From assembly GCA_029571125.1 (NCBI GenBank), contig JAKPTH010000283.1, positions 1 through 50,963 on the forward strand: a stretch of 50,963 bases of DNA, written 5' to 3'. This stretch comes from a bacterium (GTDB lineage: Bacteria > Muiribacteriota > UBA9980). Under the pieces are notes generated by a model. It did not search any database. It was given only the letters and a program-made list of their open reading frames with translations, and was not told the origin of the DNA. Shown here in pieces: positions 12,301-35,413 of the stretch. Position 1 is the stretch's first letter; every line of letters starts with the position of its first letter. The position numbers and the translations under genes were made by a program.

Positions 12301-12984
12301 AAAATCCAGCCTCACCGGGTTTCGGTGCCCCGGAACGAATATGTCCAGTATTCCGCCCCTCACAGCGAACTGTGCGAGGTCAATAACCGGGTCTTCGGCC
12401 GTGTAGCCGGCTTCGGACAGGCAGTTGACCAGTTTTTCTATATCGAGCGTATCGTTTTTAGATATTTTGATTCCGGCGTTCTCTATGGCCGTGTAAGGCC
12501 CGCATTTCTGCATGAGGCCCGTAACGGGGGCCACTATGAATAATTTTTTAGGCGTCGGGCCTTTATTTTTTCCGGCGGCCGCTCCGCCGTAATCCACGAC
12601 GCTTTTGAGAGTGGATATCCTGTCCGACATGAGGTTTTGAGATGGGGAAAGAAATTCGTATGCCGACCATTCGAGAGACGAAAAAAGGCAGACCTTATAA
12701 TCAGGAGCCTGCGAGCCGTTGCGCGCGGAGGCGGAAAGGCGGCTTTTCATAAGAGTTTCGATCTGATAGCACGCCCGTTCCGCGCTGTCCTGACAAGGAG
12801 TAACTATCAGAAAAACTTGATAATTGGAAAATTCAGGGCCGTTTAATTCCGCCGCCAGCCGGTTGATTATGAACGCGCCCATATTTTCGCCGGCGCCCGT
12901 GAGAGTGATTTTACCGGCTTTGGTCTGCTTTATCTTTCCTATGAGACCGTCGAATAATTTATTACCTATTTTTTCCCCAGCCAT
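9355..12984 (-). CDS. mfd: Transcription-repair coupling factor
   Basis: FAVRGGILDIF, GDYVVHVNYGIG (CarD/RID), MDRLICGDVGFGKTEVA, DEEQRFGV, TATPIPRT, QLRGRVGR, RDLEIRGAGNLLG, TRCF C-terminus; start at ATG 12984 after GAGG. Confidence 0.97.
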   Translation of the reverse strand: MAGEKIGNKLFDGLIGKIKQTKAGKITLTGAGENMGAFIINRLAAELNGPEFSNYQVFLIVTPCQDSAERACYQIETLMKSRLSASARNGSQAPDYKVCLFSSLEWSAYEFLSPSQNLMSDRISTLKSVVDYGGAAAGKNKGPTPKKLFIVAPVTGLMQKCGPYTAIENAGIKISKNDTLDIEKLVNCLSEAGYTAEDPVIDLAQFAVRGGILDIFVPGHRNPVRLDFFGDTVDSIKTFNIEDQRAIEQISEVYVLPASEYIFGKKEIESMYANMNKISRVPQSHEAGQIADGVRVANIERYAPFMYDYSMPTLVDYLNKYVHKYCVFYYSKEDAVNEGAEFLKKVEKLYEENKAEDIYSLAPDHYYKHPDIIIKDIEHNNATVKIDMSAYDAIDLKEPGHLIFDFNVSALPRFQGKFNQFMSKVGELIERANTVVMMLPTAGQIGRMVEVLSSMKLAVVVNDDFLSSPPARKTVYVNEGYLHEGFIYNDENIAFFSSYEAYGEHQPIYDKQVELDVKAKAKNRYRKISSHLELSDGDYVVHVNYGIGVYRGITLLSAGGREADYLLLEYADTDKLYVPVDALSMLHKYIALDGAEPKIGKLDESSWKRQKATARKSIEKLAAYLVTLYARRSIAQGHKFNLDNDLMRQFEESFPYKETSDQQNSIIEVKCDMESEKPMDRLICGDVGFGKTEVAIRAAFKACMDGKQVAFLAPTTILAMQHYNTLTSRFASYPVTVELLSRFRSKAEQKETVEKLKEGKVDVVVGTHRIIQKDMGFKDLGLLIVDEEQRFGVKHKERLKELKNHVDVLTLTATPIPRTLYMSLVGSRDISTINTPPAERLPVKTFVLRYSEDVVREAITRELMRRGQVYYVHNRIDTISSVVSKISALVPGARVRFAHGQMDEKQLEKIMVDFYDREFDVLVSTTIIENGLDISNVNTIIIERADTFGLSQLYQLRGRVGRAKNQAYAYFFFPHESILSHIAKKRLQAMKEFSELGSGYKIAMRDLEIRGAGNLLGHEQHGHICTIGFELYCRLLEEEIKKIKGESIDQKVESDCEIEINTNAYIPTNYITSTYQKIDVYKRMVAAAGFEELSELNDELIDRFGKYPEQVYNLFQIVKIKILGRALKAISVKEEKKHIIIKFQNAGQIEPASVETLRKKFGSSVSFAHEEEITILYLVKADMKGDNLVQTIISALKLLSSSGVSDSKK

Positions 12985-13766
12985 TTTAACGCCTCGCTGA
13001 ATAAAACGTAAACTATATATTTTGGTATATTTAACATCCTCGATATTCTCGAAGGCTGCTGCATAAGCCTGTAAAGCCATTCGAGATATAACTTCTGCAT
13101 AAAAACGGGGGCGCGCTTGAGAGCGCCCGACAATACGTCGAAAGTGCCTCCTACGCCCATCAAAACGCAGCCTTTTACGAACGGTTTCAAATCTTCGATG
13201 AACTTTTCCTGCGCGGGATTTCCGAGAGCGATAAGCGCTATGTCGGGTTTGAATCCGGAAAGCTTTTCGATGATGGAAACGCGCTGCGCCGCGGTAAAAT
13301 ATCCGTGATGAAAAAAAGTTTCGCCTATCCCCCGGTAATCAGATAAAACCGACGTTTCGAGCTTCGATATGACTTCGGGGCGGGCCCCTATGAAAGCCGC
13401 TCTATATCCGCGCGCCGCCGCTTCCTTCAAAAGCCTCGCGCTCAGATCGACCCCGCTGACCTTGTTTTTAACGGCGCGCCCGCCCTTGATCTTAGAAAGC
13501 ATTTTAAGCCCCGCGCCGTCGCATGTGATAATTTCCGCGCCCGAGATGATCGAGCTGTAACGCTCGTCGAAAATACTGTTATACGCGCCGAGTATGTCGA
13601 GCGTAACTATGAAAAGGTTTCCTTTTTTTTCATTTATTATGATATTTGAATATTCGATTATTTCTTCGAACGAAAGATCGTCGAGCTCTATATTGGCGAT
13701 AGCGAGCCTGGGGCGGCCGAAGTAATCGCGCGGCGCCGCCGGGCCCGAGATGGCGTTTGCGTTCAT
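12966..13766 (-). CDS. WecB/TagA/CpsF family glycosyltransferase
   Basis: CDGAG, VSGVDL, HHGYF, ALGNPAQEKF, GVGGTFDVLSG..KRAP..MQKLYLEWLYRL. Confidence 0.93.
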   Translation of the reverse strand: MNANAISGPAAPRDYFGRPRLAIANIELDDLSFEEIIEYSNIIINEKKGNLFIVTLDILGAYNSIFDERYSSIISGAEIITCDGAGLKMLSKIKGGRAVKNKVSGVDLSARLLKEAAARGYRAAFIGARPEVISKLETSVLSDYRGIGETFFHHGYFTAAQRVSIIEKLSGFKPDIALIALGNPAQEKFIEDLKPFVKGCVLMGVGGTFDVLSGALKRAPVFMQKLYLEWLYRLMQQPSRISRMLNIPKYIVYVLFSEALKWLGKK

Positions 13767-13775
13767 AAGCCGCGC

Positions 13776-14429
13776 CTACCTTAAAGCGCCTATAGCGCTC
13801 TTGTAATCGGGCTTTGAAAACACCGACGAACCGGCCACCAGAACGTCCGCGCCGGCCGCGATGACGATATCCTTATTTTCGGCCGTTATGCCGCCGTCCA
13901 CCTGTATGTGTATATCGCGCTTATGTTCGAAGGCAATTCGCTTTACGCGCCTGATTTTTTCCGCGGCCGATTCTATGAATTTCTGCCCGCCGAAACCCGG
14001 ATTCACGCTCATTATTAAAACTAGATCGACGGCATGCATTATATATTCGAGTGGCTCAAGGCCGCTATGCGGATTGAAAGAAATTCCGGCTTTTTTGCCG
14101 AGCGAACGGATATGCGAAAGGAGCCGTTCGAGATGAAAACTCGCCTCGGCGTGCACCGTTATTATATCGGCGCCTGCAGCGGCGAATTTATCCACGAACT
14201 GCTCGGGATTCGTTATCATCAAATGACAATCGATAGGTATTTTAGTTATTTTCGATATTGAATTTAAAACGGGAAGCCCGAAAGATATATTCGGCACGAA
14301 GTGGCCGTCCATGACGTCGAGATGGATCCAGTCCGCCCCGGCTTTCGTAACGCTTTCTATTTCGGCGCCAAGTTTATTGAAGTCGGCCGACAGTATCGAC
14401 GGCGCTATTAATACGCTCTTTTCAGGCAT
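13776..14429 (-). CDS. rpe: Ribulose-phosphate 3-epimerase
   Basis: IAPSILSADF, HLDVMDGHFVPN, MSVNPGFGGQKF, VDGG. Confidence 0.98.
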   Translation of the reverse strand: MPEKSVLIAPSILSADFNKLGAEIESVTKAGADWIHLDVMDGHFVPNISFGLPVLNSISKITKIPIDCHLMITNPEQFVDKFAAAGADIITVHAEASFHLERLLSHIRSLGKKAGISFNPHSGLEPLEYIMHAVDLVLIMSVNPGFGGQKFIESAAEKIRRVKRIAFEHKRDIHIQVDGGITAENKDIVIAAGADVLVAGSSVFSKPDYKSAIGALR

Positions 14430-14578: not shown

Positions 14579-15847
14579 TTACCAGAAAACGTAAAGAAGA
14601 AAACTTAAAAATCCCGCTATTACGAATAACATACTATACCAGAAATTAGCTATTTTTGCAAGTACGCTTTTCGCCCCCGCGGTTTTTTTATTGTTCCACA
14701 TCTCGCCGGCTTCTTTTCTGCCGGAAGCTTTAGTATTAAAGTTTTTCAAGCCTGTTTCGGATACCTGATTTTCAGCCGCGTTAATTTCGCCATCCGCCGC
14801 CGCGCTTTTCTTTCCGAATAAAATGGCGTAAGCGTCGCCGTCGTTTTCGGCCTGAAACCTGGTTGCGGCGCCCGGAGCGTTATTGGCAGAATCGGACGCG
14901 GCCGGCTTTTTTTCCGGGCCTCCGAAGGAAGGTATTTTAATATCTATGAAATTTTCGCCGGCCTTATTTTTAGCGCCGTCGGCTTTGCGCGGCGCGTGAG
15001 GCGTTTCTTCTGCCTGTTTCATGAATTTAGAAGGATCGACCTGCATGGAAGACAGGACGTCGGTTTTGTTTATCTGGTCCGAAACGAATTTTACGAGAGC
15101 GTCGAGAAGCTCGTCTATGGACTGATACCTCGAGGAAATATCGCTGGTGACGCATTTGAATATTATATTTTTAATAGCTTCGAGCTGCTGCGGCCCTATA
15201 TTTTTAACGTTGTCCGAATCGAGCCTGAAATCCTTCACCACTCTCATATTTCTAACGCTCAGCCCGTCCGCCTCGAACAGGGGCTTATGGGTAAGAAGCT
15301 CGTAAAAAAGGCATCCCGTAAAGAAAATATCGGAGCCCACGGAGGAAATTTTATTTTCAAAATCCTTGTTGGATATGACGTCGCGCGGTATGTGGAACTG
15401 AAGTATCTTTATCTTGCCGCTAGCCTGATAAATTATATCGGAATATGTAAGCGAACGGTATTTCACGTTTTCGCGCAGCGCCTGCCCGAAAGCTCTGGTG
15501 AGCTGGGTTATGATATTGATTATCTGGGCCAGAGAAAGCTTTTCGCGTTCCTTTAAAATGGCGTGCAGGCTCTTTCCTTCGACATGCTCGGAGGCCACGA
15601 AGAAAACGTCCTGGTAAAAATCTATGTCGTATATTTTCAAAAACAGCGGCGAATCGAGCGCGGCCATAGTCTGGAACTCCTGAGTATAGCGCTGGACGAA
15701 ATCGGGATTTTTAAGGCGCCTCTGCTTTAAAGTCCTTATATTGATGTTCACTACCGGCTCTTTCACTGTCTGCGCGAGAAAAAGCATCACTTTTTCGTCT
15801 TCGTCTATCTTTTCGAGCAGTTTATATTTATCTTTCAGCAGTTTCAT
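14579..15847 (-). CDS. Hanks-type Ser/Thr kinase-fold protein, predicted catalytically inactive (pseudokinase), with C-terminal membrane anchor
   Basis: Aligns by eye with the PrkC/PknB kinase domain (KYKLLEKI, FVQRYTQE, IYDI, EHVEGKSL, GKIKI, SDIFFTGCLFYELLT, RYQSIDEL), but the Gly-loop, VAIK lysine, HRD..N and DFG are all replaced. It ends in a single hydrophobic helix. Confidence 0.85.
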   Translation of the reverse strand: MKLLKDKYKLLEKIDEDEKVMLFLAQTVKEPVVNINIRTLKQRRLKNPDFVQRYTQEFQTMAALDSPLFLKIYDIDFYQDVFFVASEHVEGKSLHAILKEREKLSLAQIINIITQLTRAFGQALRENVKYRSLTYSDIIYQASGKIKILQFHIPRDVISNKDFENKISSVGSDIFFTGCLFYELLTHKPLFEADGLSVRNMRVVKDFRLDSDNVKNIGPQQLEAIKNIIFKCVTSDISSRYQSIDELLDALVKFVSDQINKTDVLSSMQVDPSKFMKQAEETPHAPRKADGAKNKAGENFIDIKIPSFGGPEKKPAASDSANNAPGAATRFQAENDGDAYAILFGKKSAAADGEINAAENQVSETGLKNFNTKASGRKEAGEMWNNKKTAGAKSVLAKIANFWYSMLFVIAGFLSFLLYVFW

Positions 15848-17052
15848 CTTTTAACACCTACCTCTATATCTTTAAAGAAAACGTTGTCCAGATAAACGAG
15901 CACTTTCATCGCTCCGTAACCGTTGACGCTCAGGTCTATCTCTTCGCCGGGGTAATGAGGGTTCTTATAAATCTCGCGCGGCCCCATGTCGTCAAGCAGA
16001 ACCATCTTGACTTCACGGCTTTTCTGGCCGGGAGGGACTATGAATTTGATGATTTCGACTTTTTTTACCGCGTCGCCGCTTCCGGCTTCGACCAGGGGTT
16101 TAGCCGCGGCGGCCGGGGCTTCGGCGGTCTTTTCGCCGCGGGTTTCGATCAATGGAAGCGGAGCTTCCTTGCTGCCGGCGTCTATTTTAATCACGTTGCT
16201 TTCGCTGGATTCCATTTTAACGCCGTCCGTTTTTATTATTACCGCGTCCTTGTTTTCTTCGGGCTTCGCGGCGTCGGAATTTTCGCATACTATGAAATTG
16301 ACCGGAGTTTTATCGGCGACGCCGCTTCCTGCGGCGGGTTCCTGGGCCAGAACGATTCCCGAAGCAGTGCCTTCTTTTTTCTCGTATCCTATCTTGCCGA
16401 GGTCGAGGTTAATTTTGCTCAAAACGATCTTTACGGCCTCGATGCGCCTGCCTATGAAATTAGGCATTTTAACGGTCGAATTGGCCTTGCCCTGCGATAC
16501 CAGAAGGTCTATCTGGGCGCCTTTCGGCGCGGGCTTGCCGCCTTCGGGCGTCTGTGAAATTACCGTATCCACCGCAACGCTTTCCGAAAATATATACGAT
16601 TTTTTGCCTATCAAAAAGCCTTCTTTTTGTATAATGAACGCCACGTCGCGCAGGTCTTTTCCCGTGATATCCGGGCAGTCTATGGTTTTAGCGCCGAGCG
16701 AAAGTATTACTTCCATCACGCGGTTGGCTTTTACTATGGTGTCGGGAGGCGGATCCTGGGTTATGATGCAGCCTTCGGGAATGTTGTTGTCGTGCTTTTT
16801 ATCCTTTATGTCCAGCTGCAGCTTGCACTGCTTGCAAAGCTCGAACGCGTCCTCGATGCGCACCGGCATTCCGTCCTGCGAAACCAGGTTCGGCACCTTG
16901 GTCTCCTCCTTGTTGAAAAAGGAGTTCATCATTTTAATCGAATACATTTTAGCGAACTGGAAAAGTATCACGAAAAATATTATGAATATCAAAAATTTTA
17001 ATAACGCGATAAGAATATTTCCTTTTACCGCTCTGGATTGTGTGAATCGCAT
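15844..17052 (-). CDS. Membrane-anchored PASTA-domain protein (three PASTA repeats plus C-terminal beta domain)
   Basis: N-terminal TM; repeats VPNL..IITQDPPP..V, CPDITG..VISQTPEGG..IDLLVS, MPNFIG..VLAQEPAAG..VNFIV; ATGA overlap with the pseudokinase gene. Confidence 0.92.
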   Translation of the reverse strand: MRFTQSRAVKGNILIALLKFLIFIIFFVILFQFAKMYSIKMMNSFFNKEETKVPNLVSQDGMPVRIEDAFELCKQCKLQLDIKDKKHDNNIPEGCIITQDPPPDTIVKANRVMEVILSLGAKTIDCPDITGKDLRDVAFIIQKEGFLIGKKSYIFSESVAVDTVISQTPEGGKPAPKGAQIDLLVSQGKANSTVKMPNFIGRRIEAVKIVLSKINLDLGKIGYEKKEGTASGIVLAQEPAAGSGVADKTPVNFIVCENSDAAKPEENKDAVIIKTDGVKMESSESNVIKIDAGSKEAPLPLIETRGEKTAEAPAAAAKPLVEAGSGDAVKKVEIIKFIVPPGQKSREVKMVLLDDMGPREIYKNPHYPGEEIDLSVNGYGAMKVLVYLDNVFFKDIEVGVKR

Positions 17053-17147: not shown

Positions 17148-18227
17148 TCAAATGTTTTCGCCGTCGGCGCGGGCTCTTTTCATTTCCCTGTACAGCATTC
17201 CGCAGGCCGCGTTGATGTCCTGCCCGCGTGAACTTCTTACAGTGGCGTTGATTCCCGATCTTACCAGGATGTTTTTGAATTCGGATATTTTGCTTTTCAA
17301 AGGAGCCGAAAATCCGCCTTCGGTCTTATTCATGGGTATCAAATTAACATGGCACAATGTGTTTTTCAATAATTCAGCCAGTTTAACGGCGTCCGATTTT
17401 TTATCGTTGACATTATCTATGAGCACGTATTCTATGGTAACCCGCCTTCCGGTCGTCCTCGCGTAAGTCTTAACCGCATCCATAAGGCATTTTATATTAT
17501 ACTTGCGGTTGAGGGGAACGAGCTTATCCCTGAGCGCGTCCGCAGGAGCATGCAATGAAAGGGCCAGCGTTATGGGCATATTTTCGTTCATGAGCTTTTT
17601 AATCATCGGCGCCACGCCTGCCGTCGAAACCGTTATTTTACGCATGGATACGTTGAAAGCTTTCGGGCAGTTGATTATTTTAACCGATTTTACGACGTTG
17701 TCATAGTTTAAAAGCGGCTCGCCCATGCCCATATATACTACGTTAGAAAGACCTTCCGCGGATCCTTCCGCGTCGAAAGCCGCCGCGAGAACCTGCCCCG
17801 TTATTTCGGCGGCGCTTAAATTTCTTATGAACCCCATTTTAGCCGTCTGGCAGAACGCGCAATTTACGGGACATCCAACCTGGGTTGAAACGCAAACTGT
17901 ATATTTGTCGAGTTTTTCCGAATCATATATTTTAACGGCTTCTATAACGTTTCCATCGGCAAGAGAAAGAGCATATTTTACGGCCATTTTATCGCCGGCA
18001 ACCGATTTGCGCTCCACGCGGCACGTTTCGGCGCTAAAACGCACGGCCAGCCTGGCCCTCAATTGGGAAGGTATATCCGTCATGCCCGCAAAATCGCGAA
18101 CGCCCGCATTAAAAACCCATCCGTAAATCTGCCTGGCGCGGAAAGCTTTTTCTCCCATCTCCTCGATAAGACTTTCGAACTCGTTCAACTCCAGGCCGCA
18201 TATATCTATTTTCTTTTCTTCGTTCAT
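17148..18227 (-). CDS. rlmN: 23S rRNA (A2503) C2-methyltransferase RlmN
   Basis: CVSTQVGCPVNCAFC, MGMGEP, SLHA, VNLIPMN, RGQDINAACG; start probably ATG 18227. Confidence 0.96.
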   Translation of the reverse strand: MNEEKKIDICGLELNEFESLIEEMGEKAFRARQIYGWVFNAGVRDFAGMTDIPSQLRARLAVRFSAETCRVERKSVAGDKMAVKYALSLADGNVIEAVKIYDSEKLDKYTVCVSTQVGCPVNCAFCQTAKMGFIRNLSAAEITGQVLAAAFDAEGSAEGLSNVVYMGMGEPLLNYDNVVKSVKIINCPKAFNVSMRKITVSTAGVAPMIKKLMNENMPITLALSLHAPADALRDKLVPLNRKYNIKCLMDAVKTYARTTGRRVTIEYVLIDNVNDKKSDAVKLAELLKNTLCHVNLIPMNKTEGGFSAPLKSKISEFKNILVRSGINATVRSSRGQDINAACGMLYREMKRARADGENI

Positions 18228-18267
18228 AAATTTCTTTCCGCCGCTACGGCCTCTAAAAATAAATATT

Positions 18268-19629
18268 TCACTTTCTCGGCCCGTTTTTAACAAGTCGCGC
18301 TATAAAGAATCCGTCCATGCCGCACGTGTACGGGAAAAATGTCTGGTAGCCGCTTTCGATCGTTTCCGTATCGACCCCGGCCTTTTTGAACCATTCAACG
18401 ACGTGCGCCGGGAAGGGCGAAAGCTCGAATTCCGAATTGTTTTTAATGAATTTCTTTACCAGGTTTATCGTTTCGTTCGGCTCGAACGTGCATACCGAAT
18501 AAACTACCACGCCGCCCGGGACCACGTGCGAAGCGGCAACTTCGAGAAGCTGGTATTGTATCTTAGCGAGAGAATCGATATTCTTTTCCTCGAGCCTCCA
18601 TTTCAGCTCAGGATGACGCCTGATTATGCCCATGCACGAGCACGGCGCGTCGATAAGCACCCTGTGGGCCATTCTGCTCTCGTTCATCTTCAAGACGTCC
18701 TGTAATTTGGGCGTAATGCATGTAATGCCGAGGCGCTTCGCGTTATCTTTAATCTTTTGTATCTTGTGCGAGAACCTGTCGTATGCCAGTATCAGCGACT
18801 GGTTGTTGGACAGCTGGGCGAGGTGCGTGCTTTTTCCGCCGGGGCTGGCGCAGAAATCGAAAACCACTTCCATGGGCTGGGGATCGACGACGTGCGCCAC
18901 GAGCATCGAGGCTTCGTCCTGTATGTAAAAATATCCTTCTTTAAAATAATTGGTCGACGTGAGTTCCGAAAAATTCTTCAATATTATGCCGTCGGGCACC
19001 AGCGCCGAAGGCTCCGGCTGGAAAGCCGAAAGCGCCGTCATCATGGCGTCCGTGGTTGTTTTTAAAGTGTTCACGCGGATAGAGATTCTCGGGGCGTTGT
19101 TGTTCGCCTCGCATATTTTAATGGCGTTGAGTTTGCCGAATTGCGCTATCAGGCGTTCTATGAGCCATACGGGATGGGAAAGGTGAAGCGCGAGCTTGAC
19201 GTTTTCGGCTTCGTTTTCGAATTTTATAAGCCTTTCCGAATGTTCGCAGACGTTTCTGAGCACCGCGTTCACGAAGCTCGACGAGCCAACCGGGCCGTAA
19301 GATTTGGCGAGCTTTACCGACTCGTCCACGGCGCTGTAATTAGGCACCTTATCGAGATAAATTATCTGATATACGCCCAGGCGAAGCGCGAGCAAAAGCC
19401 ACTTATTGAGGCGCGCGAATTTTTCCTTATGCTCTATGAACTGTAGTATGATATAGTCGAGGGTGTTCTGGTGGCGGATAACTCCATACACCAATTGAAT
19501 GGCGAAGTTTTTGTCGAGCGTATTGAATACGTTCTTCTGGATTATGTCGTCGATCACTATATTGGAGTATGCGAGCTGGGTTTCGACCTGATACAATATG
19601 CGTATTGCGCACTCTCGGGCATTAATCAT
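18268..19629 (-). CDS. rsmB: 16S rRNA (C967) m5C methyltransferase with N-terminal NusB-like domain
   Basis: AVDESVKLAK, FVNAVLR, IQDEAS, DFCASPGGKS, DAPCS, YSVCT, DGFFIA. Confidence 0.96.
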   Translation of the reverse strand: MINARECAIRILYQVETQLAYSNIVIDDIIQKNVFNTLDKNFAIQLVYGVIRHQNTLDYIILQFIEHKEKFARLNKWLLLALRLGVYQIIYLDKVPNYSAVDESVKLAKSYGPVGSSSFVNAVLRNVCEHSERLIKFENEAENVKLALHLSHPVWLIERLIAQFGKLNAIKICEANNNAPRISIRVNTLKTTTDAMMTALSAFQPEPSALVPDGIILKNFSELTSTNYFKEGYFYIQDEASMLVAHVVDPQPMEVVFDFCASPGGKSTHLAQLSNNQSLILAYDRFSHKIQKIKDNAKRLGITCITPKLQDVLKMNESRMAHRVLIDAPCSCMGIIRRHPELKWRLEEKNIDSLAKIQYQLLEVAASHVVPGGVVVYSVCTFEPNETINLVKKFIKNNSEFELSPFPAHVVEWFKKAGVDTETIESGYQTFFPYTCGMDGFFIARLVKNGPRK

Positions 19630-34318: not shown

Positions 34319-35413
34319 TCAACATATTTGATATTCAACCGCTTTTTCCCTTAAGCGGCGGTACTTATAAACGAGTTCGGCGCGGTCCAGCTTTTCATCG
34401 CCCCATGAAAGCGCAGGAATGCCCGACAACGCCGCGGCGCCCGATTCGAAAGCGGATATGACCCTGTCGGCTTTTTTTAAAGTTTCAAGCGTGCAGCTGC
34501 GGCCGCCCACATCGTCGTGTATATCGAGGATATATGAGCGCAACGATTCGAGCGCATATAATTTTTCAAGCGCGGCGTGGTTTTCCAGCCCATTTTCCCA
34601 CAGCCCGATAATGCCGGTCTTCCAGTTTATTATGCCCTGATCGGCGCGGTTCGATCTCAGCCAGCTCAAAGTTCTGTGATAATATTCGACGGCCAGCTCT
34701 TTTTCCATGCGGTATTCTTCAAGCGCCGCAGCGCGCCCTTTTTCATCTTCGATATCCATGAGGTACTGCATGAAACTGCGCGTCTCGAACCTTTCTACCG
34801 GATGAAAGAGCGGCAGCTCCATTCCGTCGGCGTTATATTCGCCAAGCGGCGAAAAAGGATACATATATCCGAAATCAAAGAGCTTCACCGTCCCGTCTTT
34901 TTGCGCAAGTATATTGCCGGGGCAAAGGTCGTACTCGAACAGTCCGGCGGTTTCTATATGAAACAGCGTATCAAAAAGATTCGAAATTATCTGCGGCGTG
35001 TACTTTTTAACGGTTCCGCCCTCGATCCACGGTGAAACTATTATGCCGTGCTTAAGGCTCGCGTACACGGTATCGACGACTCCCGCAAAAGCCGCGGGGT
35101 TTTTCTTTTTAAGCGTTTCAAAATCACGTCTGCGCTGGACTTCGTTTAAAAACGAAGTCTGGCCGTCGGCGTTTTTAACCAGTATTTCTGCGCGCTTCTT
35201 TTTAAGGTTCCAGCGGCGGCCGCCGGCGGCGATCATGAAAGTATCGGCCGTCAATCCGCTGCCGATACGCTTTTCGACGCAAGACGAACGTTCGTTCACT
35301 TCGAGAAGTTCCGGCAGGCTTATCGGAAGCAGCGAAGCGTCTCCGGCTTCTATATCGCTTCCGGAGGCTAAAAATTCGAGCTGCTTATTTCTTCTAATAT
35401 CGGCATGTCCCAT
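34319..35413 (-). CDS. Kinase-like phosphotransferase (APH/AarF-like)
   Basis: IGSGLTA, LKK, NEVQRR, YDLCPGNIL, KLFDFGY. Confidence 0.8.
   Translation of the reverse strand: MGHADIRRNKQLEFLASGSDIEAGDASLLPISLPELLEVNERSSCVEKRIGSGLTADTFMIAAGGRRWNLKKKRAEILVKNADGQTSFLNEVQRRRDFETLKKKNPAAFAGVVDTVYASLKHGIIVSPWIEGGTVKKYTPQIISNLFDTLFHIETAGLFEYDLCPGNILAQKDGTVKLFDFGYMYPFSPLGEYNADGMELPLFHPVERFETRSFMQYLMDIEDEKGRAAALEEYRMEKELAVEYYHRTLSWLRSNRADQGIINWKTGIIGLWENGLENHAALEKLYALESLRSYILDIHDDVGGRSCTLETLKKADRVISAFESGAAALSGIPALSWGDEKLDRAELVYKYRRLREKAVEYQIC

Follow-up and report, generated by a model that had tools for sequence, protein, structure and literature searches.

The 50,963 nt contig JAKPTH010000283.1, from a bacterial metagenome-assembled genome (MAG; 725 contigs, 93.9% complete), was analyzed at its full length and is referred to here as the window. 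Its minus strand carries a gene for a degenerate protein kinase that overlaps an upstream gene for a PASTA-domain protein. We propose that the two products probably constitute a non-catalytic, two-protein wall-sensing module derived from a split PrkC/Stk1-type receptor, in which the kinase-fold half is tail-anchored and lacks the residues for ATP and Mg binding and for phosphate transfer; assembly would occur through the transmembrane (TM) helices, and output would be by scaffolding or allostery. This suggests wall sensing without phosphorylation by the pseudokinase itself. PASTA kinases serve as the model system for the way in which Gram-positive bacteria link the state of the cell wall to growth, division and beta-lactam tolerance, and phosphorylation is assumed to be their output. 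Coordinates of the features discussed are collected in Table 1.

The downstream gene of the pair encodes a Hanks kinase by its Pfam Pkinase (PF00069) match, whose score of 56.5 bits exceeds the cut-off of 31.7. Among NCBIfam models the protein matches NF033483, the Stk1/PknB PASTA-kinase equivalog, best, but at 116.6 bits the match lies well below the cut-off of 450, and the protein does not have the kinase, TM helix and PASTA repeats on one polypeptide that this family requires: it stops at its TM helix, and the upstream gene carries the repeats separately. The solved structures nearest to it in sequence are StkP, Staphylococcus aureus Stk1 and Mycobacterium tuberculosis PknB, and a profile of 20 family members searched against PDB sequences scores these at 162, 149 and 139 bits, followed by PknA (109 bits) and by all others at 83 bits or below. 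AlphaFold2, run with a 35-row alignment, predicts a confident fold for residues 1–265, mostly with a predicted local distance difference test score (pLDDT) above 90 (above 90 for blocks 1–150 and mostly above 85 up to 265); pLDDT falls below 50 over most of residues ~268–394 and returns to ~90 in a terminal helix (395–421). In a Foldseek search with this model PknB structures rank first (TMt 0.70–0.78), with the best match to 6b2p (E 3.8e-16, TMt 0.78). Since the terminal helix is hydrophobic and nothing follows it, we regard the protein as tail-anchored, and the C-terminus is hydrophobic in every family member inspected. A reading made from the sequence alone had called this gene a PknB/PrkC-derived pseudokinase, and the sequence and fold matches agree with that assignment. 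The core of that reading, a non-catalytic PrkC-derived protein, stands, but the protein is only half of a receptor, with the PASTA ectodomain on the overlapping upstream gene; this ectodomain gene and the tail anchor of the pseudokinase had both been overlooked.

Residue-by-residue alignment with active PASTA kinases recovers every motif substitution that the sequence-only reading had listed. The glycine-rich loop reads IDEDEKVMLF where the active kinases have IGEGGMANVY, the beta3 strand reads NINIR in place of NVAIK (Lys to Arg), the catalytic loop reads YRSLTYSDI in place of HRDLKPQNI (HRD Asp to Ser), and DFG reads QFH (Asp to Gln). The activation segment had been described as largely deleted, and it is indeed reduced, with 19 residues between DFG and the 'SD' of alphaF as against 36 in active kinases, or about 17 fewer. 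Elements of the fold are retained, including the alphaC Glu (E57), the E-x-x-E-G hinge, the SDIFF-G segment of alphaF, and RYQS with the alphaH-I Arg, and the reading frame (422 aa) is open, as had also been proposed. Directly after the DFG remnant is a nearly invariant and family-specific 'P-R', with P154 present in all 20 rows of one alignment (A3). The loss of at least one of the VAIK Lys, HRD Asp and DFG Asp, when conserved, is the definition of a pseudokinase in the portion available to us of an atlas of bacterial serine/threonine kinases (preprint 10.1101/2025.01.12.632604), and this protein and its relatives conform to it.

The substitutions are shared by relatives across the phylum, for which our sample comprises all 87 species genomes, in 11 families (f1 to f11, with the window in f1), of Wallbacteria, Muiribacteriota and their relatives. 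All 14 full-length f1 orthologues (47–82% identity) have DEDEK in the glycine-rich loop, I-R (I-L once) at beta3, Y/H-R-S/A-L-T/N-Y-S/E-D in the catalytic loop, and Q/K-F-H/R for DFG. In a 30-row sample of the family, whose members are related so that the counts are of sequences and not of independent events, neither the HRD Asp, the DFG Asp nor GxGxxG occurs in any row, and the activation segment spans 16–25 residues; all five active PASTA kinases aligned with them have canonical motifs and 36-residue activation segments. Both aspartates are thus replaced in 30/30 rows and the whole catalytic triad in 8/8 f1 rows. The beta3 position is more varied, being Arg (seven) or Leu (one) in the f1 rows and Lys (18) or His (four) in the 22 rows outside f1, so that retention of catalytic residues in close relatives, which would have pointed to recent decay, is seen for neither aspartate and, in f1, not for the lysine, yet the lysine is present in most of the more distant members. 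By these alignments the degeneration is ancient and phylum-wide, and it goes further in f1, where the beta3 Lys is changed to Arg, the catalytic-loop Lys to Thr and the Asn to Asp.

These patterns bear on the possibility that the protein is an atypical active enzyme, performing phosphotransfer or another nucleotide-dependent reaction with displaced residues in the manner of WNK, Escherichia coli YegI or SelO-type proteins. The HRD Arg (R131) and the alphaC Glu are conserved, as is the Asp (YSD) that takes the place of the catalytic-loop Asn; the beta3 Lys persists in 18 of the 22 members outside f1, and the very strong constraint on DEDEK within f1 shows that the pocket region matters. However, in the window protein the Lys, both Asp and all of the glycines of the loop are replaced together, an acidic loop would be expected to repel phosphates, the activation segment has been deleted along with its APE/SPE region, and in none of the 30 rows is there an Asp at the HRD or DFG position that could stand in for the lost one. 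We therefore consider an active enzyme very unlikely for this protein, and less so for the relatives that keep the Lys.

The gene directly upstream supplies the missing parts of a PrkC-type receptor. Its 402-residue product contains a short basic N-terminal tail, a TM helix, three stretches that match Pfam PASTA (105.2 bits), and a C-terminal domain (aa 326–402; 15847–16077) modeled by AlphaFold2 as a six-stranded, Ig-like beta domain. It matches positions 336–562 of the 563 in NF033483, with 108.5 bits against the cut-off of 450, and Foldseek pairs its model best with PDB entry 3py9, which covers the whole extracellular part of S. aureus PrkC (E 2.3e-16, 358 columns); apart from orthologues, its nearest relatives are the PASTA portions of Stk1-type kinases. 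Because the two genes together hold all of the parts of a PrkC-type kinase, with one TM helix each and the sensor first, we conclude that the receptor is split over two polypeptides. Elsewhere in the genome PASTA is matched only once, in a protein (C699) that combines Transpeptidase and PASTA domains and is a penicillin-binding protein.

Conservation is distributed unevenly along both proteins. Mean pairwise identity among 12 f1 orthologues of the PASTA protein is 0.87 in the TM and juxtamembrane segment (aa 11–55) as against 0.73 in the PASTA domains, and the beta domain, at 0.80, is comparable to the TM region; motifs of this domain (F-V-M/V-P-D/P-G … G-x-R-x-I/V-Y … Y-L/I-D/N) are common across the phylum. 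Among 14 f1 orthologues of the pseudokinase it is 0.72 in the TM tail (aa 398–422), 0.70 in the kinase domain and 0.22 in the linker (aa 286–385), within which the short motifs listed in Table 1 are conserved in alignments of relatives. These figures leave out one deposited protein (P0014) whose N-terminus is cut by a run of N.

The pseudokinase gene is kept under strong purifying selection and is not decaying. Database searches yield 20 orthologues with 47–100% identity and one 252-residue fragment, and six f1 loci were recovered from MAGs of Candidatus Wallbacteria, UBP16 and ADurb.Bin243. The ratio of nonsynonymous to synonymous substitution rates (dN/dS, by the Nei-Gojobori method) was taken from the two pairs that are not synonymously saturated, the window with locus L015 (dS 0.475) and L016 with L017 (dS 0.36). 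In the kinase domain it is 0.052 and 0.040, respectively, and in the same two pairs it is 0.12 and 0.07 in the TM tail and 0.15 and 0.19 in the linker (aa 286–385). Neighboring genes give 0.040 and 0.041 (def), 0.035 (rpe), 0.056 and 0.059 (the PASTA gene) and 0.08–0.12 (fmt, rlmN and wecG; among these, 0.10 for fmt and 0.12 for rlmN). The dead kinase domain is therefore as constrained as its housekeeping neighbors, and values of 0.04–0.05 were found where neutral decay would have given values near 1. The sequence-only reading had likewise argued for a selected protein over a decaying one, and the presence of the same dead motifs in the f1 orthologues is in line with this.

That the gene is a decaying remnant or an assembly artefact of prkC can be practically dismissed. 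Over its full length the gene shares 82% identity with L015, the lowest value in the locus (89–99% for its neighbors), but this low identity is attributable to the disordered linker, the reading frame is intact in every orthologue inspected, and the same architecture recurs in 10 of the 11 families. The sole apparent break, a frameshift in L018 (CAYQWL010000017.1), was rejected as such, as it coincides with a run of N at L018:8108–8120; as a consequence of this run the deposited protein P0014 starts at residue 66 (395 aa), which mimics a truncation or frameshift.

Ten of the phylum's 11 families have the pair. An exhaustive search of representative sequences returned only 12 proteins at E <1e-30, and a second tier of relatives with the same build (320–403 aa, 24–37% identity) includes one annotated from a Candidatus Muiribacteriota MAG. 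When the 20-member profile was run against the 87 genomes, there was mostly one match per genome far above the ordinary kinases (~125–135 bits), at 240–488 bits in f1, 310–384 in f2 to f5, 160–250 in most of f6, and 130–190 in f8, f9 and f11. In f1 the PASTA gene lies directly upstream in all five loci that reach that far, in the order rsmB-rlmN-PASTA-pseudokinase, which def and fmt precede in four of the five; the sixth (L020) starts inside the pseudokinase gene. Downstream, rpe-wecG-mfd follows in four f1 loci, the partial L020 included. Fifteen loci were fetched from eight other families (two each from f2 and f11, six from f6, and one each from f3, f4, f5, f8 and f9), and all of them have a PASTA match directly upstream, with the adjacency in one (L043) taken from tblastn and hidden Markov model coordinates; another sequence (L046), containing a run of X, was left out of alignment A4. 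In 13 of the 15 rpe is directly downstream, and in the other two the contig ends there; rlmN is upstream in seven, and the upstream neighbor in f11 is rsmB. The order rlmN-PASTA-kinase-rpe is seen in the f6 loci. The junction between the two genes is -4 or -1 nt in the f2, f4 and f5 loci examined and 8–28 nt in f6 and f8. A kinase-like match likewise adjoins the PASTA protein in f9 (G063) and f10 (G068). In f7 a PASTA match lies ~1 kb from a contig end, with no pseudokinase-like match listed on that contig.

No fused PASTA kinase reaching the NF033483 cut-off of 450 bits was found in any of the 87 genomes, as compared with 3 of 14 control genomes. Of the NF033483 matches listed for the phylum, all end within the first 370 of the 563 positions, with a single exception that reaches 471. 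Kinases of ~600 aa in f6 and of 644 and 673 aa in relatives of f1 were considered as candidates for fused PASTA kinases and rejected: their NF033483 matches stop at ~300–370 of 563, and tblastn with the PASTA protein gave a match in 0/5 of these loci. We note that the ~600-residue protein carried by f6 genomes (L047/G020, L048/G055 and L049/G014 among them) looks like an active membrane kinase whose ectodomain is of another type; it coexists with the dead split pair and is a candidate partner for it. Three genomes from f7, f8 and f10 (G061, G062 and G068) have 330–440 first-look kinase candidates each, as compared with 5–40 in most genomes of the phylum, a very large expansion of Hanks kinases. 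In a protein atlas, Rifleibacteriota is the commonest phylum of the two nearest clusters, which we regard as a lead, and a third cluster, with a score of 0.99 by language-model features, consists of kinase-domain proteins of ~399 aa, most commonly from Chloroflexota; as a lead only, this cluster may hold similar short, membrane-anchored dead kinases from outside the phylum.

Descent from the Stk1/PknB family is supported by the sequence ranking, by the affinity of the PASTA half to the Stk1-type/PrkC ectodomain, and by synteny. The two genes lie within a minus-strand series at 9.3–21.2 kb of the window (def, fmt, rsmB, rlmN, the PASTA gene, the pseudokinase gene, rpe, a WecG/TagA-type glycosyltransferase gene and mfd), and they occupy the position of prpC-prkC-cpgA in the rlmN-to-rpe locus of Bacillus subtilis; the description of this as the canonical prkC locus from sequence alone was thus apt. 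The PASTA-domain Hanks kinases (NF033483), such as B. subtilis PrkC, S. aureus Stk1/PknB, Streptococcus pneumoniae StkP and M. tuberculosis PknB, are the nearest relatives of both halves, and they have in common with them the kinase fold, a juxtamembrane linker, a TM helix, three PASTA domains, a C-terminal beta domain and the rlmN-rpe locus. They differ in being single polypeptides with canonical motifs, whereas here there are two polypeptides each with a TM helix, the sensor comes first, the catalytic Lys, both Asp and the glycine-rich loop are lost, the activation segment is shortened, and neither an adjacent PP2C phosphatase nor rsgA/cpgA accompanies the pair; the two halves score 116.6 and 108.5 bits where a member would score at least 450.

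The available parts of the atlas preprint (10.1101/2025.01.12.632604), which was built from RefSeq and UniProt, place PASTA kinases in a canonical 'KAPD' family, and those of a recent review (PMC12599244, 2025) recognize seven bacterial pseudokinase families (ActPs1-3, GLW, CP1, DYD and DLHK) together with EssB/YukC and the MviN domain; the preprint gives the same seven families and MviN. Two of these invite comparison. From what these two sources give, the MviN (MurJ) protein of M. tuberculosis, with ActPs3, resembles the window protein as a membrane-associated pseudokinase linked to the cell wall, with three degraded motifs and a deletion in the activation loop, but ActPs3 is actinobacterial, the domain of MviN is fused to a flippase, and that family is marked by a deletion of ~40 residues and by aromatic residues that fill the ATP pocket, whereas here ~17 residues are missing and the protein is stand-alone and tail-anchored. 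The 60 best PDB sequence matches of the profile of the present family, which are led by PASTA kinases, do not include MviN, and this ranking places the family with the PASTA kinases. EssB/YukC of type VIIb secretion, as the review portrays it, is a single-pass membrane pseudokinase with a degraded glycine-rich loop and a reduced activation loop, and EssB has a scaffold role; it has an extracellular domain after the TM helix and is encoded in type VII secretion clusters, whereas the window protein ends at its TM helix, has a PASTA partner, and lies in a def-fmt-rsmB-rlmN/rpe context. With rlmN, the PASTA gene, rpe, wecG and mfd as its neighbors, it does not belong to EssB/YukC. Within the portions of the literature available to us we found no description of a tail-anchored pseudokinase derived from a PASTA kinase and having a separate PASTA partner, and a few of the present MAG proteins could sit in the 42 families covered there.

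The favored two-protein module can be pictured as follows. An ancestor of this candidate phylum would have split its PASTA receptor kinase into two co-transcribed membrane proteins, perhaps by tandem duplication of prkC with subsequent loss of the kinase part from the first copy and of the ectodomain from the second; we propose duplication because the swapped order and the TM helix on each half are its expected leftover. The upstream product, with its TM helix, three PASTA domains and Ig-like beta domain, would be the extracytoplasmic sensor, and it would assemble in the membrane with the pseudokinase via their unusually conserved TM helices. Such pairing is proposed because conservation of the TM segments (0.87 and 0.72) equals or exceeds that of the folded domains, which is more than a mere anchor needs; a complex prediction for the TM-bearing parts (PASTA protein aa 1–60 with pseudokinase aa 335–422, as alignments) scores 0.02 and is neutral on binding. 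By sensing the status of the wall or of lipid II, the PASTA domains would then alter the oligomerization or conformation of the pseudokinase, which would convert PASTA-dependent clustering or localization into cytoplasmic protein-protein contacts, serving as a scaffold or allosteric partner through surfaces of its N-lobe and kinase domain and through linear motifs of its linker while itself phosphorylating nothing. Two residues of the N-lobe, K7 and D74, fall in the alignment columns of the Arg and Asp in the 'xRY' and 'xDxG/D' motifs of StkP and Stk1, and D74 is invariant in active and dead rows alike; in PknB, Arg10, Leu33 and Asp76 belong to the back-to-back dimer, with the Arg-Asp pair as its salt bridge, and a like role for K7 and D74 is a lead only. 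A bolder version, in which the phylum as a whole has exchanged its PASTA receptor kinase for a non-covalent receptor whose co-evolving TM helices report peptidoglycan or lipid-II purely by allostery and scaffolding, following prkC duplication and complementary loss, is a speculation that we hold only tentatively. Its signal might be relayed by back-to-back contacts of the N-lobe that switch a soluble or FHA-linked Hanks kinase of the organism.

Other components of phospho-signaling are present in the genome. There is no PP2C gene in the locus, as the sequence-only reading had said, but its suggestion that phospho-signaling had been lost was too broad: at least seven further full Pkinase matches are found elsewhere in the genome, together with six FHA matches and a single PP2C match on another contig, and Ser/Thr phospho-signaling as such is therefore not lost. 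Two of the FHA matches (C228 and C706) have a kinase match on their own contig and strand, no more than ~1 kb away. An alternative output can be built from these components, in which active Hanks kinases phosphorylate Ser/Thr residues of the linker and so recruit FHA proteins to a docking scaffold, with the PASTA neighbor providing localization only or being independent. The M. tuberculosis MviN pseudokinase works in this way according to the review (PMC12599244, in the part available), and the linker is disordered and has conserved motifs that contain Ser/Thr. Nevertheless, the linker is the least conserved part of the protein (identity 0.22), MviN lies outside the best 60 PDB matches, and the tight phylum-wide coupling to the PASTA gene argues for a joint function. 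We judge this alternative unlikely, although, as it bears on the output step, it is compatible with the split-receptor explanation.

Several points weigh against the interpretation of the pair as a non-catalytic receptor. Support for expression of the pseudokinase gene is thin, consisting of two 151-nt contigs with no differences, both inside the gene and both from one RNA library (X16) that may contain DNA. Contigs of 151–498 nt from two other libraries (X18 and X19) lie on the PASTA gene with 2–42 differences, and most of them come from relatives, as they have 5–42 differences; none of the contigs from the three libraries, which may hold DNA, bridges both genes, and neither transcription nor co-transcription is shown. 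Adjacency and overlap of the genes speak for co-expression and not for binding, and we infer both the physical contact of the two proteins and their output. Loss of ATP binding and of activity in the window protein is deduced from its residues, and outside f1 18 of 22 members have the beta3 Lys and the majority have the alphaC Glu and the catalytic-loop Lys and Asn, so that nucleotide binding in those relatives is possible. Finally, the dN/dS values come from only two pairs, all others being synonymously saturated.

If the bolder version is correct, a non-covalent PASTA receptor would be a bacterial counterpart of HER3/KSR-type pseudokinase signaling. A deep lineage that keeps all of the receptor parts under strong selection, with catalysis removed and the sensor cut off, amounts to a natural separation-of-function experiment, and it makes testable the non-catalytic roles of PASTA kinases in localization, scaffolding and allosteric dimerization, as well as the ability of TM helices alone to carry a signal. 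The few pseudokinase families recognized in bacteria are also joined by another one; their list, in the parts of the review and preprint available to us, has no member derived from a PASTA kinase.

Table 1. Features of the split PASTA receptor locus in the window (all on the minus strand)
Feature	Coordinates	Strand	Basis
Pseudokinase CDS, 422 aa: kinase-fold domain, disordered linker and C-terminal TM tail anchor	14579..15847	-	Open reading frame with ATG start; Pfam, NCBIfam, motifs, dN/dS
Kinase-fold domain, aa 1-265, all catalytic motifs replaced (DEDEK, INIR, YRSLTYSD, QFH), short activation segment	15053..15847	-	AlphaFold2, Foldseek, dN/dS
Juxtamembrane linker, aa 266-394, mostly disordered, with short conserved motifs QVDPSKF, D-A/P-Y-D/A-I-L-F-G-K and MW-x-NKK	14666..15052	-	pLDDT, f1 alignment
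C-terminal TM helix, aa 395-422, at the end of the protein (…FWYSMLFVIAGFLSFLLYVFW)	14582..14665	-	AlphaFold2, conservation
PASTA sensor CDS, 402 aa: short N-terminal tail, TM helix, three PASTA domains, disordered linker and C-terminal beta domain	15844..17052	-	Pfam, NCBIfam, AlphaFold2, Foldseek
TM helix of the PASTA protein, aa 9-46 in the model	16915..17028	-	AlphaFold2, conservation
ATGA overlap of the PASTA-gene stop codon and the pseudokinase start codon	15844..15847	-	Sequence
rlmN, upstream flank	17148..18293	-	Pfam Radical_SAM and RlmN_N; synteny
rpe, downstream flank	13776..14429	-	Pfam Ribul_P_3_epim, 274 bits; synteny

Three further features of the window were noted. The rsmB gene (18268–19629, minus strand) is exceptionally conserved, with 99% amino acid identity to L015 and 94% to L016 and L017 as compared with 67–96% for its neighbors, and with dN/dS values of 0.006 and 0.013 as compared with 0.04–0.12 for the other genes of the locus. 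As called, the mfd reading frame begins with the ATG at 13080 and shares 115 nt (12966–13080) with the end of the wecG-type gene on the same strand; the true start of mfd is probably further downstream. A 364-residue open reading frame at 34319–35413 (minus strand) has a weak Pkinase match at 34865–35002 (19 bits, below the cut-off, model positions 99–144) and may encode a distant kinase-like or APH-like protein.

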